A stretch of DNA of 64,000 nt from the NCBI GenBank assembly GCA_038245255.1, contig JBBRSQ010000001.1:2335-66334 (forward strand), given 5' to 3'. Every line of letters begins with the position of its first letter. Positions within the stretch are counted from its first letter, which is position 1. The notes below the pieces were generated by a model. It made no database searches, was not told the DNA's origin, and saw only the letters and a list, made by a program, of their open reading frames with translations. Positions 47,452 to 54,300 of this stretch are shown here, piece by piece. A program made the translations under genes and the position numbers. The DNA is from Patescibacteria group bacterium. Its GTDB lineage: Bacteria > Patescibacteriota > Patescibacteriia > Patescibacteriales > UBA12465.

Positions 47452-48123
47452 ATGAAAAAACATTTAATTTTCCTAGCAACGATTCTGCTGGCAAGTATTA
47501 ATTTGACTCTGCTAGCAAATGAATCTGTAAAATCAGATAATCTGAAAATTATTCAAAACCAAAACGGAAAATATTACATTATCCGAAGTTCTCAAGCATT
47601 TGAATCCGTAAATGGTTTTCTGCGCGTACCGATTGTTGATTCGCTCAACTACATTGACCCAGCGATTCCTCAAAATATTTGGGTTAAAGCTTATCTGGAC
47701 AAAAATATCATGTTCGAGATGCGTCATACTGCACGTAGTTTAATAATAATCGAGGACTGGCGTCTCAAGATTTTTAATCGTTTGGATTACCATTACGCCT
47801 CCTTAAATAATGACAGCCTCAAACTGCATACCGACTACAACATTTCGGGCGTAAACGATTCTCAGGCGACTAGCGGAGGCACAATTTTGCTAATCTGTAT
47901 ATTTATCGCCGGTCTAATATTTGGATCAATAATCAGTAGCCCTAGGGGTTTTAAATTAATGCTATTATTACTCGCCGGTTTAATCACAATGCTATTTTTC
48001 TACTTCTTTTTCGTCGGGACAATCTACGCTCGCTTATTCCCCCTCGTTCCGTTTATCGTCGGAAATTTAGTAATGCTCAGTATCTTAAAATTATTTCGAA
48101 CTCTAAAGAAAAACAGGTCATGA
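47452..48123 (+). CDS. hypothetical signal-peptide protein with a C-terminal TM anchor (paralog 1)
   Basis: Shares the motif VDSLNYIDPAIPQNIWVKAYL with the next gene. Has a C-terminal hydrophobic pair. Confidence 0.55.
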   Translation: MKKHLIFLATILLASINLTLLANESVKSDNLKIIQNQNGKYYIIRSSQAFESVNGFLRVPIVDSLNYIDPAIPQNIWVKAYLDKNIMFEMRHTARSLIIIEDWRLKIFNRLDYHYASLNNDSLKLHTDYNISGVNDSQATSGGTILLICIFIAGLIFGSIISSPRGFKLMLLLLAGLITMLFFYFFFVGTIYARLFPLVPFIVGNLVMLSILKLFRTLKKNRS

Positions 48124-48857
48124 AAAAGAAAATTATTTTCGGAATTATTCTCGGGTTAGTAATGTTTAGCTTCAATTGCTTTGCTCAAAAATTTGAGCAA
48201 GAAGATCCCCTGTCACCAATGATTGATGATACAATTATGTTGGCTTCAGATAGTCTGGAAATTGTTCAGATTAAGGAAAATAAATTCTTCGTTGTTTGCA
48301 CTACTTGCGAAGTGCTAAGTAGCCACGGATATATGCGGCGAATAATTGTTGATTCACTCTCATACATTTCACCTGACATACCAAGAGATTATTGGCTAGA
48401 AGCCTACAGCACCAAGCAGGTAACTTATAAACATAAGTTATTGTTGAGCCGACTCGAACTAAAAAATTGGAAGCCAATTATGACTTACGTCTGGCAGGAC
48501 TCTGAAGCTATCTACGCAAGCGATAGTCTTAAGTCAATAAGCACATCCTACATATCCTCAGAAAACTACAACAGCCTATTAAGCTCTAAGTTTTCGGCCA
48601 ACTACTTTTTACTGTTTGTAGTAATAGTCGGATTCATCTGGTTTATAATGTCACTTGATACGGGGATAAAAAAAAGCCTCCATGCTTACGGAGAGCTGGC
48701 AACTGGATTAGGTATAGCGATTATTTTCTATTTTACTTTTGGAAAAACTTTAGCCGCTTTTATCTTGCCTCTGATAGCCTTTGTATTAGGGGCATTTATA
48801 CCATTAATAATTACTAGACTGATTAAAATACTCATTAGATCCGTTAGTAAAAATTAA
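48120..48857 (+). CDS. hypothetical signal-peptide protein with a C-terminal TM anchor (paralog 2)
   Basis: VDSLSYISPDIPRDYWLEAYS, with the same architecture as the previous gene. Its start overlaps the previous gene's stop (ATGA). Confidence 0.55.
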   Translation: MKKKIIFGIILGLVMFSFNCFAQKFEQEDPLSPMIDDTIMLASDSLEIVQIKENKFFVVCTTCEVLSSHGYMRRIIVDSLSYISPDIPRDYWLEAYSTKQVTYKHKLLLSRLELKNWKPIMTYVWQDSEAIYASDSLKSISTSYISSENYNSLLSSKFSANYFLLFVVIVGFIWFIMSLDTGIKKSLHAYGELATGLGIAIIFYFTFGKTLAAFILPLIAFVLGAFIPLIITRLIKILIRSVSKN

Positions 48858-49814: not shown

Positions 49815-50489
49815 TTATTTAAATAAAACTGGTACTTTTACTGAAGCATCATTTTCTGGCAAACCGGAAGGATTATCTTTAGAAATTACTAAATAACCAC
49901 TAGTCGCCATTGTCAAATATGTTAACTCAGAAGTAAATCTAACCGGCTTTTCAGTCATCCAGTCATCTTGAGCGGTACCGTAATGAGCGACAATTAAATT
50001 ATTATTATTGTCATATAATTTAACTGGCAAAGTCGCTTCAAAAAACCAATTACCAATAGCCGTGCCTTCAATTTTTAAAGGTGAGCTAACAAGTTCGTTT
50101 TGTTTTGGACTAACAACGACTACTTCATTAGAGAAGCTCGCTTGAGGTTCATCTCCTGCCTGAGTGCTAGTCACAATATCCATTTCACATTTTTCCTCCC
50201 AAACACGTAAACACTTCTCTTTTAAATCACACCAAGAATAACCAGCCGAGGCAATACAACCATGTTCGTCTCGGTCATTTCCGACTAAAGATTCTCCCTG
50301 ACTACCAGGGCAAAGTGTTGTTGGCCTGGCTGCCTTTGGATTTCCGTGCTTAGCCCATTGACTATCAGTACAGACCCAATTGTCTTCCTGACTAGTGGCT
50401 CGTAAAACAATTGCACTAAAGATAATAACACCAACTACTCCTAACAATAAATAAGATTTTTTCATAAAATTATTTTTATTAATTACCAA
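49815..50489 (-). CDS. hypothetical secreted Cys-rich protein
   Basis: Signal peptide MKKSYLLLGVVGVIIFSAIV and 8 Cys in the mature part. The start is likely the ATG at 50465; the track start is a TTG. Lies immediately downstream of the promoter at the left inverted-repeat terminus. Confidence 0.55.
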   Translation of the reverse strand: MVINKNNFMKKSYLLLGVVGVIIFSAIVLRATSQEDNWVCTDSQWAKHGNPKAARPTTLCPGSQGESLVGNDRDEHGCIASAGYSWCDLKEKCLRVWEEKCEMDIVTSTQAGDEPQASFSNEVVVVSPKQNELVSSPLKIEGTAIGNWFFEATLPVKLYDNNNNLIVAHYGTAQDDWMTEKPVRFTSELTYLTMATSGYLVISKDNPSGLPENDASVKVPVLFK

Positions 50490-50494
50490 CTTAT

Positions 50495-50849
50495 GGTGTC
50501 TCTATTGTACCAAGTTAGAACCTATTTTCAAAACAAATGATGTCGCACGCGCGAAGCGCGTGGTGAAGCGAAACTAAATCGTACGCTCGGAGAATCGCCC
50601 TGCCACCGCCTCGCTTCGCTCGGCAACTCCGAAAGAAAAAACACTCCTTGCATTTCTGATTTGGCGGGGGTGAAATTTCTTTTGAAAAAGGAAAGGGTGT
50701 TTTTCTTTCGGGGTTCTGCCCGAAAAGATATTCGGACAGGCGGAGTGCAAATGCAAATGTGGAACGCGAGCGGAAAATTTTGCGGAGGACTGGGGGTTTG
50801 GGCGAAAGGACTCCGCAAAATTCTGTTTCGCGTATTTGATTTTGTGGGG
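50495..50849. repeat. left copy of a 355-bp GC-rich inverted repeat (IR-L), likely a structured non-coding element
   Basis: Reverse-complement match to 53816..54170 with only 2 mismatches. About 55-60% GC in a ~35% GC context. Contains internal hairpins (cacgcgc-gaa-gcgcgtg; ttttgcggag...ctccgcaaaa) and a long-range 15-nt complementary pair (ccgaaagaaaaaaca / tgtttttctttcgg). Confidence 0.9.
50504..50537 (-). promoter_or_regulatory. outward-facing extended -10 promoter at the IR-L outer terminus, reading into the Cys-rich secreted protein gene
   Basis: On the minus strand TTGAAA, 16-nt spacer, TGgTACAAT (-10 hexamer at 50509-50504). The predicted transcription start near 50497 is ~32 nt upstream of the ATG at 50465. 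Confidence 0.5.
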
Positions 50850-50906: not shown

Positions 50907-51536
50907 TTATGATAATTTTATTTTTCCAAAGCTATTTTCTTTAATTTCACTTGATAAATTTAATCTTTCTCTAACTTTATTATTTATTTCTTGAATTGTT
51001 TCTTTTAAATCTCCATTGTTATTGATAAAATCGATAGAAATACCAAGTTCTTTAGCCTGTTTAATGGCTTCATTTTTTTCTAATTCTAATTGCTCTTGTA
51101 TATAATTAAAATCTATAACTCTATCATTTCTTTCAGAAATATCTTTTATTCTTCTATTGAGAATATTCTCTGGAGTTGAATTAACAACGAAAATCGCTTT
51201 CATTTGCTCATAATCTTCATTACGAATATTCCTCACAGAAAAATCTTTACCTTCTACTTCAAAATAAATAAAATGACCATCTAAAATTCTAATTGTATAA
51301 GGATCATTTTTATCTTCCTCATAAATTATTCTAAACATTTCTGGTCTATATTTTCCACGAACATCATCTGGTAGTTTTCTAAATTCTTCTGGAGAAATAT
51401 CACCAGCAAGATGGCACAGAATTGGTAAACCGCGAATTCTAAGAGCCTTATGACTTTCATCATTCAATCTCTCTACAAGTCCTTTAATTACAGAAGTTTT
51501 TCCAGTACCAGGTATTCCAGCAACGTAAATAAACAT
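50907..51536 (-). CDS. P-loop NTPase, predicted (deoxy)nucleotide/nucleoside kinase-like (AAA/adenylate-kinase-like fold)
   Basis: Walker A GIPGTGKTS at the extreme N-terminus. Small 209-aa kinase-like size. Confidence 0.65.
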   Translation of the reverse strand: MFIYVAGIPGTGKTSVIKGLVERLNDESHKALRIRGLPILCHLAGDISPEEFRKLPDDVRGKYRPEMFRIIYEEDKNDPYTIRILDGHFIYFEVEGKDFSVRNIRNEDYEQMKAIFVVNSTPENILNRRIKDISERNDRVIDFNYIQEQLELEKNEAIKQAKELGISIDFINNNGDLKETIQEINNKVRERLNLSSEIKENSFGKIKLS

Positions 51537-51539
51537 AAA

Positions 51540-52112
51540 TTATTGTGTATTAAAAATACATTCCCCTGTTAAATTATTCTGAGTTTTATATTCATCCCAA
51601 AGTTTTAAATACGCTTTATTTATTCTTTCATTTTTTTCTAAACCTAATTCTAAAATAGATTTTTCTATATTATCTTCTTCTCCTTCTATTTCAATAAAAT
51701 AACCAAAAGGTAATTCATCAACAACAAAATCACAATTATTTATATTTTCCAGTCTGTATCTTCTCTTCTCAAAAATATGTTCGATTGGGTATTCTAAAGC
51801 AAAGAACATGCCTCTTATACTATTTATTTTTTCATCATCAACATTCTCTAACAAAAACTCATGCTCATCTCTTATAAATAAGTTCCCCAGATTTTCTTCT
51901 TTCTTATTTTTAACCTTTACTGTTACATAAGCTTTTCTACTATCTTTTTCTATTACTTCTTTTATTCTAGGGAAAATTCCCTTTTCCATATTCTTATATT
52001 CATTCGTAAAAAAACCATATGTTTTTTCAAACTGAAACTTACTTTTATCTTTTACAAATTTGTCAAAAATTTCTTTATTTATTTTTAATTTAATTTCTAT
52101 TTCTTTTTTCAT
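51540..52112 (-). CDS. CYTH-domain (triphosphate tunnel metalloenzyme / class IV adenylate cyclase-like) protein
   Basis: N-terminal EIEIKLKI matches the ExExK CYTH signature. The ~190-aa length fits a single CYTH domain. Confidence 0.55.
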   Translation of the reverse strand: MKKEIEIKLKINKEIFDKFVKDKSKFQFEKTYGFFTNEYKNMEKGIFPRIKEVIEKDSRKAYVTVKVKNKKEENLGNLFIRDEHEFLLENVDDEKINSIRGMFFALEYPIEHIFEKRRYRLENINNCDFVVDELPFGYFIEIEGEEDNIEKSILELGLEKNERINKAYLKLWDEYKTQNNLTGECIFNTQ

Positions 52113-52132
52113 ATTTTAAAAATTAAAAAATA

Positions 52133-52996
52133 TTAATAATAACCTCCAGATTTTTTAGGATAGGGTTTTAAATACTCAGTTCTATCTTTTATTTTTGCTT
52201 CCAAAAAACACCTTCTTCTGTCCCAACAACAAGGACAAGTTCCACAATGAATTTTACTTGATTTTATACAACTTCTTGTTTTTGAAAGATCTAGACCATT
52301 TTCTTCACAATAAGTGATTAAAACATCCTTGTCGTAATAATTACCCAATTCTACTTCAATAGGTAAAGATATATATTGAAAGTTATAATCGTTTAAAATA
52401 TGGCAAGTTTCTAGATTAAGCATTCTCTGCCAAGTAAGAGAACAATGAAAAGAAGTATCGCTAGCAACATGTGCAATAAAAACAGTGTTAACATTCATTC
52501 CTTTATTTTTTAAAGAAATTGCATACTCCATACCCGTAAGAAATATAATAGAGTTTCTAGCTGGATAAGATACATGGGCTGAATGTTCTTTTTTATAAAA
52601 TTTCTTTTTTACTTCTCTTAAATCATCTTTGTATTCCAAGGCGGGTGTATTAACTTTAATTTCTTTTGTTTTGTGGTAAAGTTTTGGAAATTTTTTAGCA
52701 AAAAGTTTATCATAATAATTAATTGATTTTTTTTCCCATTTATAACAATTTTGACCTCTATTTATAAAAAATGGAAACACTTGATAACCAAACTCATTCA
52801 TCAAAATAAAAATATTTGACACCGCATCTGCTCCACCAGACATACAACACACAACAGCACTACCCTTTGGAGGCATTTTTACAACATAATTTCTTTTATC
52901 TATAAAAATTTTATTTAGGACTTTTACAACTTTTAAATCTTCGTTTATTTTATCCTCAATTTTTATTTTGCCTTTATTCTTGATTATTTTGATCAT
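52133..52996 (-). CDS. PP-loop ATPase (adenine-nucleotide alpha-hydrolase), QueC-like with a C-terminal Cys cluster
   Basis: SGGADAVS PP-loop after a ~45-aa N-terminal extension. C-terminal CIKSSKIHCGTCPCCWDRRRC resembles the QueC zinc-binding motif. Confidence 0.6.
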   Translation of the reverse strand: MIKIIKNKGKIKIEDKINEDLKVVKVLNKIFIDKRNYVVKMPPKGSAVVCCMSGGADAVSNIFILMNEFGYQVFPFFINRGQNCYKWEKKSINYYDKLFAKKFPKLYHKTKEIKVNTPALEYKDDLREVKKKFYKKEHSAHVSYPARNSIIFLTGMEYAISLKNKGMNVNTVFIAHVASDTSFHCSLTWQRMLNLETCHILNDYNFQYISLPIEVELGNYYDKDVLITYCEENGLDLSKTRSCIKSSKIHCGTCPCCWDRRRCFLEAKIKDRTEYLKPYPKKSGGYY

Positions 52997-53720
52997 ATTT
53001 TTTATAACTATTAATTATTTTTTTAGCATCCTCAATTGTTTCTTGATAAATATGAGCATCAGTAATCATTCCATCCAAAGAACCGATCCAAATTTTTGTG
53101 TTTAGTTTAGTTTCTAATCTCTTTGCTACCTCTTCAGATAGTAATGCAATCGCAGCAAAATTACCTCCAGCTTTCTGGTAGGCATCTATTGATCGTGCAT
53201 TAAAAATTGTATTTAAATGATAGCCATTCTGATTATCAATTTTAATTAATCTGAATTGAATAGTTGTAATACAGGGCAGATAATCATCTTTGGGTCTTTC
53301 AAGAGTTCTTTCATAATCTTCTTTTCTGACAAAGCTCATTATAGCTTTTTTGCTTTCTGGTATTTCTGCAAGCCTATCCACCACAAAATCAAGCATTTTC
53401 CATTCTTTGATTCTTGCATAATAGCTTTGACTTCCATCTGAGAATGATGGAACAATATCAAAGTCATGCATAATTTCTTTATTAAAAGTTAAATCAATAA
53501 TTGCATCTATGTTTTCTTTATCCCCATATCGACTAAGCAATTGATCTGGATAAATTTGGGAGTTTGATCTAACTCTAATATTTTGAAGACATAATCTATT
53601 TCTGCCTTCATCAGAAGTTATGTTCCCATTTTTTAAAATTACTTCTACTAAACTTAACCAGGTACTCCCCAATACTTCACCATAAATCAAAAGGCCAAAA
53701 GGCTCTATTTTTATGTACAT
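52974..53720 (-). CDS. thymidylate-synthase-fold enzyme (ThyA-like pyrimidine C5 methylase/hydroxymethylase homolog)
   Basis: SKKAIMSFV, YLPCITTIQFRL and ARSIDAYQKAGGNFAAIALL align to the ThyA SRRIIVSAW, LAPCHAFFQFYV and [20 protein letters not shown] motifs. The catalytic Cys and the uracil-specifying Asn are retained. Confidence 0.7.
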   Translation of the reverse strand: MYIKIEPFGLLIYGEVLGSTWLSLVEVILKNGNITSDEGRNRLCLQNIRVRSNSQIYPDQLLSRYGDKENIDAIIDLTFNKEIMHDFDIVPSFSDGSQSYYARIKEWKMLDFVVDRLAEIPESKKAIMSFVRKEDYERTLERPKDDYLPCITTIQFRLIKIDNQNGYHLNTIFNARSIDAYQKAGGNFAAIALLSEEVAKRLETKLNTKIWIGSLDGMITDAHIYQETIEDAKKIINSYKKYDQNNQE

Positions 53721-53815: not shown

Positions 53816-54170
53816 CCCCACAAAATCAAATACGCGAAACAGAATTTTGCGGAGTCCTTTCGCCCAAACCCCCAGTCCTCCGCAAAATTTTCCGCTCGCG
53901 TTCCACATTTGCATTTGCACTCCGCCTGTCCGAATATCTATTCGGGCAGAACCCCGAAAGAAAAACACCCTTTCCTTTTTCAAAAGAAATTTCACCCCCG
54001 CCAAATCAGAAATGCAAGGAGTGTTTTTTCTTTCGGGGTTGCCGAGCGAAGCGAGGCGGTGGCAGGGCGATTCTCCGAGCGTACGATTTAGTTTCGCTTC
54101 ACCACGCGCTTCGCGCGTGCGACATCATTTGTTTTGAAAATAGGTTCTAACTTGGTACAATAGAGACACC
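53816..54170. repeat. right copy of the 355-bp GC-rich inverted repeat (IR-R)
   Basis: Reverse complement of 50495..50849 with 2 mismatches. An outward-facing TTGAAA-N16-TGgTACAAT promoter sits at 54134..54161 on the + strand. Confidence 0.9.
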
Positions 54171-54215
54171 AGAAACGAACTAGACGGCTTTTTCAAAGCC
54201 GTCTAGTTCGTTTCT
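54171..54215. repeat. 45-bp perfect palindrome (21-bp arms, 3-nt loop) between IR-R and the tRNA-Leu 3' end; likely a bidirectional terminator or recombination site
   Basis: agaaacgaactagacggcttt-ttc-aaagccgtctagttcgtttct. Exact complementarity over 21 bp. Shares its last nucleotide with the tRNA 3' end. Confidence 0.85.
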
Positions 54216-54300
54216 GGTGCCCGAGGGGGGATTTGAACCCCCATGGGATTTCTCCCGCAGCGTTCTGAACACTGCGTGTCTACCGTTTCACCACCCGTGC
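54215..54300 (-). tRNA. tRNA-Leu (anticodon CAG), type II with a long variable arm, CCA encoded
   Basis: Minus strand reads GCACGGGTGGTGAAACGGTAGACACGCAGTGTTCAGAACGCTGCGGGAGAAATCCCATGGGGGTTCAAATCCCCCCTCGGGCACCA. Folds into a cloverleaf with a D-arm, anticodon loop TTCAGAA, variable stem CGGGA/TCCC, T-arm GGGGGTTCAAATCCCCC and a 7-bp acceptor stem with one A-G mismatch. Confidence 0.85.

Follow-up and report, generated by a model that had tools for sequence, protein, structure and literature searches.

We examined a stretch of 64,000 nucleotides (the window) from a Patescibacteria group bacterium (GenBank assembly GCA_038245255.1, contig JBBRSQ010000001.1, positions 2,335 to 66,334). Our subject is a cassette of four open reading frames (ORFs), at window positions 50907-53720, all on the minus strand and tightly packed head to tail. 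In gene order, the products are a thymidylate synthase (TS) fold enzyme, a PP-loop ATPase of the QueC clade, a CYTH protein and a P-loop kinase (Table 1). We refer to the first two as ThyA-like and QueC-like. Their genes overlap by 23 nucleotides, the gaps that follow are 20 and 3 nucleotides, and there is no terminator-like site inside the cassette. Hence, the simplest reading of this layout is that the four genes would form one transcript. A preliminary description of the cassette, made from the letters of the window, listed the same ORFs and motifs, all of which are present. Its fold assignments were also right, as judged by Pfam, profile and structure matches. Note that none of the four proteins reaches NCBIfam equivalog level and all are far below the cut-offs. 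As far as such scores can tell, none of the four is a housekeeping orthologue, and the nearest relatives of each are archaeal in type.

The ThyA-like protein matches Pfam family Thymidylat_synt (PF00303) at 2.4e-10 (40.5 bits, gathering score 24.3). An AlphaFold (AF2) model, with a pLDDT of 84, was compared with the Protein Data Bank (PDB) using Foldseek. TS-family entries were recovered with a probability of 1.00, so the TS alpha/beta fold is present. The top TM-score, 0.70, was to the CMP hydroxymethylase MilA. The lowest E-values were for the phage flavin-dependent dCMP 5-hydroxylase AfhB (9iqc and 9iqu), varicella-zoster virus TS, and human TS. Identity to solved TS-family members was 15-21% in every case. 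The family profile had no match among PDB sequences at E<=0.01 and, in phmmer searches with E. coli ThyA, the protein was not matched at E<=10. NCBIfam models scored well below their cut-offs, the best being the methanogen-type thymidylate synthase TIGR03283 (39.7 bits against 174.55), followed by NF002495 (36 against 327) and TIGR03284 (20.9 against 108.35).

Since the family profile matched no PDB sequence, active site residues were compared by hhalign with E. coli ThyA, taken from NC_000913.3. Only residues 111-231 of the ThyA-like protein align, corresponding to the C-terminal, dUMP-binding, half of the enzyme. In this region, C150 pairs with C146 of E. coli ThyA, R176/S177/D179 with R166/S167/D169, N187 with N177, and H223/Y225 with H207/Y209. 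The nucleophilic cysteine and the dUMP-recognition residues are invariant in 20 family members. The phosphate-binding D-S-R-R sequence, which provides R126/R127 in E. coli, is an invariant E-S-K-K (K124 and K125) in this family, and the arginine pair is absent. A conserved loop, residues 86-94, was modelled with pLDDT <50. We accept the protein as a TS-fold enzyme predicted, from the residues kept, to act on a uracil-type mononucleotide. The preliminary description went further and proposed a dUMP-directed methylase or hydroxymethylase. While the uracil-type residues bear out the first part, the second part is not established, because only the dUMP-binding half aligns, D-S-R-R is E-S-K-K, and a flavin-dependent TS-fold hydroxylase is among the best structural matches.

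The QueC-like protein matches Pfam QueC at 1.8e-11, above the gathering score. Both the SGGxD[AS] PP-loop and a Cys4 zinc-type cluster (C243, C251, C254 and C257) are invariant, as is typical of the QueC fold. Beyond these, Cys198 is invariant, and ~45 amino acids at the N-terminus form a conserved extension. QueC itself, and Cap9, use ATP to activate the carboxylic acid of 7-carboxy-7-deazaguanine (CDG), to which ammonia or an amine is then added; two such rounds take QueC to the nitrile (bioRxiv 10.1101/2025.09.03.674047). The protein in the window could do the same, for queuosine/preQ0 synthesis, for Dpd-type DNA modification or for Qat-type defence, with the adjacent genes as bystanders. 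Links of this kind were raised in the preliminary description, and the fold is compatible with them. However, similarity does not extend beyond the generic QueC fold. Thus, 16.9 bits were obtained with TIGR00364 (QueC; cut-off 150.3) and 15.3 bits with NF041925 (QatC; cut-off 280), the latter match spanning only the C-terminal cysteine motif. The PADLOC QatC model gives an E-value of 0.008, and a PDB profile search reaches QueC only at 7e-4. With all four cassette proteins, PADLOC returned generic QueC and P-loop matches, and recognized no defence system; there were no matches to QatA, QatB or QatD. Furthermore, genes for QueD, QueE, FolE, QueF, TGT, DpdA, QatA, QatB and QatD are absent from all 36 neighbourhoods of the module described below, in which the invariant partner is a TS-fold pyrimidine enzyme. 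Hence, we consider a role in 7-deazaguanine chemistry or Qat-type defence highly improbable.

The remaining two proteins are consistent with nucleotide substrates. The CYTH match of the 190 amino acid protein (4.6e-4, 20.5 bits) is just under the gathering score of 23.2, when the single sequence is used. The family profile matches the triphosphate tunnel metalloenzyme Saci_0718, from Sulfolobus, at 1.1e-10, and this is the nearest solved relative. Across 14 members, the CYTH residues E4, E6 and K8 (the ExExK motif), R49, K66, R81, E83, K116/R118, E141 and E143 are conserved. The predicted role is that of a (deoxy)nucleoside triphosphate, or (d)NTP, pyrophosphatase. The 209 amino acid protein matches Pfam AAA_17, a P-loop kinase-type family, at 7.5e-8. 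Its family profile matches archaeal adenylate kinases 3h86 and 6pjw, over the full length, at 5e-10 to 7e-10. Invariant residues include the P-loop (G7-x2-G-x-G-K13) and arginines of the LID (R128/R129, and D138/R139). The NCBIfam model PRK04040 gives 8e-12 and 45.1 bits, below its cut-off of 155, so an equivalog assignment is not supported.

To see how the cassette is distributed, the ThyA-like family was followed in sequence collections. In 5.8 billion proteins, the family forms 424 clusters. Among the matches listed, identity to the window protein is 62-78%, and nearly all of the named sources are Patescibacteria. A scan of 185,579 species genomes found only 31 loci. These include Patescibacteria (Ames-, Uhr-, Nealson-, Woese-, Brenner- and Staskawiczbacteria, and Paceibacterota) and, in three cases, DPANN archaea (two Nanoarchaeota and one Woesearchaeota). 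Gene content was tabulated for 36 distinct loci, including the window. Most are on cellular contigs with unrelated neighbours. Synteny between the window and L023, the closest relative with all four genes, is limited to the cassette and does not extend to the flanks. In 35 of the 36 loci, the very next gene after ThyA-like is QueC-like, and the two usually overlap. Some loci have a second QueC-like paralogue. An NTP pyrophosphatase of some kind is encoded by 31 of the 36. This enzyme has the CYTH fold in 22 loci, is Ham1/ITPase-like in 7 and of the NUDIX type in 10. A further variant, included in the total of 31 and not among the 7, is a QueC-like/Ham1 fusion in a Nanoarchaeota metagenome-assembled genome (MAG); the same fusion occurs in metagenomic proteins P0147 and P0153. 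Kinases are found in 19 of the 36 loci. Those resembling the window protein, of the archaeal adenylate kinase-like type, account for 13. Five are of the Thymidylate_kin type, inserted between the ThyA-like and QueC-like genes, and two are of the deoxynucleoside kinase (dNK) type.

The strongest evidence that these comparisons offer is that different folds stand in for one another while the generic activity stays the same. Such non-orthologous swapping argues that the conversions of NTP to monophosphate (NMP) and pyrophosphate, and of NMP to diphosphate (NDP), both belong to the pathway. In turn, if pyrophosphatase and kinase roles are part of the pathway, the substrates should be free nucleotides, not tRNA or DNA. 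The co-occurrence of the families, which the preliminary description had proposed to look for, is thus borne out, with the ThyA-like and QueC-like genes adjacent almost throughout and their partners functionally swapped. We found neither clear orthology to housekeeping ThyA, nor unrelated housekeeping partners, nor a lack of conserved co-occurrence, which together would have spoken against that description.

Two copies of the module are in phages. Both have ThyA-like, QueC-like and CYTH genes, situated in a block of replication and recombination genes. Contig L040 also encodes an exonuclease, NinB, YopX, an M23 endolysin, a GroEL-like protein and a methyltransferase. Contig L048 encodes a large terminase (1.8e-49), a small terminase, an amidase endolysin, RusA and a Cas4-like exonuclease. 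This placement, inside a replication and recombination region, fits a pathway for modification of DNA precursors. Among GenBank phages (INPHARED), the ThyA-like protein was only ~27% identical to ordinary phage TS or dCMP hydroxymethylase genes, and the QueC-like protein had no matches. In a rough neighbour-joining tree, DPANN copies and phage L040 are basal, while phage L048 is within the bacterial crown group. Archaeal, bacterial and phage copies are interleaved, and both Nealsonbacteria and Uhrbacteria are polyphyletic. Hence, the tree points to horizontal transfer. In the window, the cassette has a GC content of 27.3%, compared to 35.4 +/- 1.0% in other segments of the same length (z of about -8, with 0 of 544 as low). 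This composition suggests a foreign origin for the cassette, which is next to housekeeping genes encoding CysS, RNase HII and BipA, and to a gene for tRNA-Leu. The suggestion, made in the preliminary description, that the cassette was captured fits both the low GC content and the inverted repeats, of 359 nucleotides, either side.

Taken together, these observations lead us to propose, with the balance tipping modestly in favour, that the cassette is an accessory, horizontally transferred, pathway acting on free pyrimidine deoxynucleotides, with the base-replacement logic of phage T4. Initially, the CYTH enzyme would release pyrophosphate from a (d)NTP and leave the monophosphate; dUTP, or a different pyrimidine dNTP, is the most likely substrate. 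Cys150 of the ThyA-like enzyme would then add to C6 of a uracil-type dNMP, so that a carbon, or other, substituent could be installed at C5. The QueC-like protein, translationally coupled to the ThyA-like enzyme and probably in complex with it, would use ATP to activate a carboxyl-type group, giving an amide or nitrile, or a ligation. Finally, the NMP kinase would re-phosphorylate the modified dNMP, and a general NDP kinase and DNA polymerase would put the product into DNA. By analogy with QueC, the substrate of the QueC-like protein probably carries a carboxyl-type group. Hence, the ThyA-like enzyme may generate a C5 carboxyl, carboxymethyl or carboxy-hydroxymethyl group, for conversion to the amide or nitrile. 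Alternatively, the QueC-like protein might supply an acyl-adenylate to the C5 carbanion. Amination or thiolation of a ring carbonyl, as done by GMP synthase, YcfA and ThiI, is chemistry of other PP-loop clades and is also possible. We infer the function from comparative genomics, and this applies to the substrate, to the sequence of reactions, to the kind of group placed at C5 and to entry of the product into DNA.

A more specific version of this proposal can be stated. Here, the ThyA-like and QueC-like pair would build a new C5-substituted deoxyuridine nucleotide. The ThyA-like enzyme would form the C5 carbanion and would install, or accept, a carboxyl-type or acyl group; the QueC-like enzyme would use ATP to turn that group into a carboxamide or nitrile, or would supply the acyl-adenylate. 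The nucleotide would be the pyrimidine counterpart of CDG, 7-amido-7-deazaguanine (ADG) and preQ0, incorporated genome-wide in the DNA of some candidate phyla radiation (CPR) bacteria, DPANN archaea and their phages. We regard this version as possible, though doubtful.

Several observations weigh against a pathway for modified DNA precursors. Only two of the 36 loci are clearly phage, and a search of IMG/VR, with either the ThyA-like or QueC-like profile, found one contig only. Half of the loci have no nearby kinase, and neither phage copy has one. No dedicated DNA polymerase, glycosylase or nuclease recurs beside the module in the locus neighbourhoods, and DNA is a predicted destination for the product. 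The N-terminal half of the ThyA-like protein, corresponding to the part of ThyA that binds folate (with the folate-binding or catalytic residues E58, W80 and W83), is not alignable to ThyA by sequence. Moreover, we know of no TS-fold enzyme that installs a carboxyl-bearing group, or of any precedent for the hand-over from the ThyA-like to the QueC-like enzyme. Lastly, the nearest relatives of the QueC-like protein outside the module are proteins of 405-450 amino acids with a C-terminal PqqD/RiPP recognition element (RRE) domain, which binds peptides (P0240, P0248, P0251, P0233, P0283 and P0300; RiPPs are ribosomally synthesized and post-translationally modified peptides). Such fusions, in a sister clade, indicate that this QueC-like clade is not confined to nucleobase substrates, and suggest that an uncharacterised, peptide-modifying, branch of the QueC clade exists. 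In a separate relative, P0264, the fusion partner is a Peptidase_S24 domain instead.

Some of the same features could result from simple supply of dTTP, as housekeeping or salvage, in a nucleotide auxotroph. In this scenario, the CYTH, Ham1 or NUDIX protein is a dUTPase, the ThyA-like protein is a methanogen-type TS and the kinase is a thymidylate kinase. The QueC-like protein would be auxiliary and might, for example, provide or activate a non-folate one-carbon donor. The dUMP-type residues and high conservation (62-78%) of the ThyA-like protein, its best NCBIfam match, and the Tmk-like genes within five operons are all as expected. Furthermore, no canonical ThyA or ThyX is encoded elsewhere in the 64-kb window, and thyA genes are common auxiliary genes in phages. 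However, the match to TIGR03283 is far below the cut-off, and the small size of the family, in genomes and protein clusters alike, is at odds with a housekeeping role. The rarity (~31 species), patchiness and foreign composition of the cassette argue against a housekeeping TS, as does a taxonomically incongruent distribution that includes archaea and phages. Dependence on a QueC-clade ATPase, sometimes as two paralogues, or association with the inactive DNPH1-like binder considered below, would have no explanation. In addition, Patescibacteria generally encode dTMP synthesis already (PMC12455944). We therefore think it unlikely that the cassette serves to make dTTP.

In six loci, though not in the window, a DNPH1/Rcl-like protein is encoded directly upstream of the ThyA-like gene. 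The first ~145 residues match PDB entry 2klh at 5.7e-11, and entries named '5-hydroxymethyl-dUMP N-hydrolase' at about 1e-7 (7.8e-8 for 9i3q). The catalytic glutamate of the G-x-G-Y-E motif is an invariant glutamine in all six proteins. In human DNPH1, the equivalent E104Q change abolishes cleavage and 5-hydroxymethyl-dUMP is still bound (PMC10603095). By analogy, the protein is probably a dNMP-binding sensor or regulator, not a glycosidase. A C-terminal extension of ~55 amino acids is also present; by eye it resembles a ribbon-helix-helix, but Pfam lends no support and we do not claim one. Together with the Tmk-like and dNK-like kinases, the DNPH1-like protein would favour a 2'-deoxy, thymidylate-like, metabolite.

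The DNPH1-like protein also bears on whether the product is a nucleotide or nucleoside antimetabolite, or a signal, instead of a DNA base. This might be an antiviral molecule resembling a chain terminator, for which prokaryotic viperins, paired with nucleotide kinases, provide a model. Equally, the product might be the precursor of a nucleoside antibiotic, of the MilA/MilB kind, with which the episymbiont would act against its host or rival organisms. MilA, an enzyme of mildiomycin biosynthesis, has the highest TM-score with the ThyA-like model, and there are QueC homologues in pathways for deazapurine antibiotics. Both an accessory and a mobile character are seen for the module, and the sister clade of the QueC-like protein is fused to RiPP recognition elements. 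Moreover, the fold of DNPH1-like proteins is that of the MilB/BlsM N-glycosidase family (PMC10603095). Against this, with glutamine in place of the catalytic glutamate, the DNPH1-like protein would not release a free base. The neighbourhoods have no recurrent genes for sugar modification, peptide ligation, export or immunity, and PADLOC matched no system. Placement in phage replication modules better fits the supply of precursors for the phage's own DNA than the production of a toxin. For these reasons, we judge an antimetabolite or signal unlikely.

We now turn to the flanks of the cassette, which is enclosed by inverted repeat arms that are 99% identical (Table 1). The arms have 48% GC, compared with 35% for the genome, and their predicted folding is much stronger than that of shuffled sequences (z of -3.9 and -5.3). 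At the outer end of each is a promoter-like site (TTGAAA-16-(TG)TACAAT). ORFs listed inside the repeat are probably spurious. The repeat has no match in Rfam, even at E<=10, and no other copies in the window or in 39 loci. A metagenome scan with a 20-mer of the repeat found five loci, sharing only 20-25-mers, that are chance matches. No convincing target-site duplication was seen by eye. Candidates for the repeat are a pair of structured RNA genes, ends like those of a miniature inverted-repeat transposable element, or a substrate for inversion. Immediately outside the right arm, a perfect 25-bp palindromic hairpin (54167-54219) overlaps the CCA end of tRNA-Leu(CAG) and the outer 8 nucleotides of the arm; no U-tract follows on either strand. 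An independent Logan assembly of the same organism (L039, from SRR19962014) is a contig of 3026 nucleotides that ends exactly in these repeats. Other module contigs of ~3 kb are L011, L014 and L015, and both L039 and L011 hold little besides the module. The break in L039 indicates that short-read assemblies are interrupted at the repeats and, hence, that the orientation of the cassette in the MAG contig is not certain.

Among the other loci, only L010 and L013 have flanking inverted repeats. These contain a near-consensus promoter, so that one copy precedes the ThyA-like operon and the other a convergent kinase gene. Judging by this arrangement, duplication of the promoter serves co-regulation. 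About one locus in three has a tRNA gene within ~1 kb of the module, and five of these genes are for tRNA-Gln. No integrase adjoins these tRNA-proximal modules, and the proximity may reflect insertion beside tRNA genes. Elsewhere in the window, two adjacent and overlapping genes encode paralogous membrane proteins that share the sequence IVDSL.YI.P.IP...W..AY, and similar C-terminal transmembrane regions.

Table 1. Positions of features in the window and, where an L-number is given, in other loci carrying the module
Feature	Locus	Position	Strand	Remarks
ThyA-like (TS fold) enzyme, 248 aa	window	52974..53720	-	YLPCITTIQF and GGNFAAIALL; catalytic Cys150 and Asn187 (uracil-type)
QueC-clade PP-loop ATPase, 287 aa	window	52133..52996	-	SGGADAVS and C-x7-C-x2-C-x2-C
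CYTH / triphosphate tunnel metalloenzyme, 190 aa	window	51540..52112	-	N-terminal EIEIK
P-loop nucleoside monophosphate kinase, archaeal adenylate kinase type, 209 aa	window	50907..51536	-	GIPGTGKTS
Inverted repeat, left arm, 359 nt	window	50491..50849		outward-facing promoter-like site 50531-50504, aimed at gene 49815-50489
Inverted repeat, right arm, 359 nt	window	53816..54174		outward-facing promoter-like site 54134-54161
tRNA-Leu(CAG)	window	54215..54300	-	immediately outside right repeat arm
Membrane protein paralogues	window	47452-48123 and 48120-48857		adjacent, overlapping
Inverted repeat, ~202-211 nt	L010	1377-1587 and 4153-4363		near-consensus promoter TTTACA-17-TATAAT
Inverted repeat, at least 41-46 nt	L013	5959-6004 and 9513-9558		reaches contig end
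QueC-like/Ham1 fusion	L029	4949-6424		Nanoarchaeota MAG
DNPH1-like	L007	7255-7872	-	
DNPH1-like	L022	2514-3266	-	
DNPH1-like	L025	92-709	+	
DNPH1-like	L026	5304-5906	-	
DNPH1-like	L027	5264-5926	+	
DNPH1-like	L028	5297-5899	+	
Module-adjacent tRNA gene	L010	4375-4448		
Module-adjacent tRNA gene	L013	5666-5739		
Module-adjacent tRNA gene	L017	3789-3863		
Module-adjacent tRNA gene	L032	5730-5803		
Module-adjacent tRNA gene	L027	5091-5162		
Module-adjacent tRNA gene	L012	9018-9238		
Module-adjacent tRNA gene	L029	3580-3664		
Module-adjacent tRNA gene	L015	1528-1684		
Module-adjacent tRNA gene	L028	10047-10118		
Module-adjacent tRNA gene	L037	5040-5112		

The preliminary description did not recognize the four-gene combination as a known system and, consistent with this, our search of the full-text literature found no description of the module. 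What is known is the logic of the phage pathways. What is new is the obligatory QueC-clade partner, the TS-fold subfamily, and the CPR and DPANN setting. To our knowledge, pre-replicative pathways for pyrimidine modification come almost entirely from phages of cultivated bacteria, and a QueC-clade PP-loop ATPase has not previously been reported in pyrimidine modification. If our proposal is correct, the module would extend such pathways to cellular CPR and DPANN genomes, and their phages, and would add an enzyme class to them. Should the product be a new DNA base, this would affect sequencing and cloning of DNA from these organisms, and could explain how episymbionts that scavenge host nucleic acids discriminate self from non-self. 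For enzymologists, a compact route to a modified dNTP, of four genes and 2.8 kb, would become available. If the base were a C5-substituted deoxyuridine, it would be a new natural DNA base in two of the least-studied branches of cellular life. The cassette is small and self-contained, with many natural variants, so these ideas are directly testable.

Finally, we compared the cassette with known systems. The closest parallels are the T4 pathway (gp56 dCTPase, gp42 dCMP hydroxymethylase and gp1 dNMP kinase) and dUMP hydroxymethylase pathways of the SPO1 type. Like these, the cassette combines a dNTP pyrophosphatase, a TS-fold dNMP enzyme and an NMP kinase, and can occur in phage replication modules. 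The three activities are predicted to be encoded together in the window, with swapped equivalents across the 36 loci. Unlike the phage pathways, the cassette has an obligatory QueC-clade PP-loop ATPase after the TS-fold gene, the pyrophosphatase is of the CYTH, Ham1 or NUDIX kind, not the MazG or dUTPase type, and most copies are in cellular CPR and DPANN genomes. Compared with QueC, Cap9 and QatC, the QueC-like protein is far below the QueC and QatC cut-offs and has the extra N-terminal segment and Cys198; it is never beside deazaguanine, Qat or CBASS genes, and always beside a TS-fold gene. MilA and MilB, of mildiomycin synthesis, and DNPH1 resemble the six loci that pair a TS-fold enzyme with a DNPH1/MilB-fold protein, in that 5-substituted pyrimidine nucleotides are recognized. 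In contrast to MilB and DNPH1, the protein of the module has glutamine for the catalytic glutamate, and the C-terminal extension. Methanogen-type TS is similar to the ThyA-like protein in short length and archaeal affinity, while the TIGR03283 score, less than a quarter of the cut-off, shows that the two are not orthologues.

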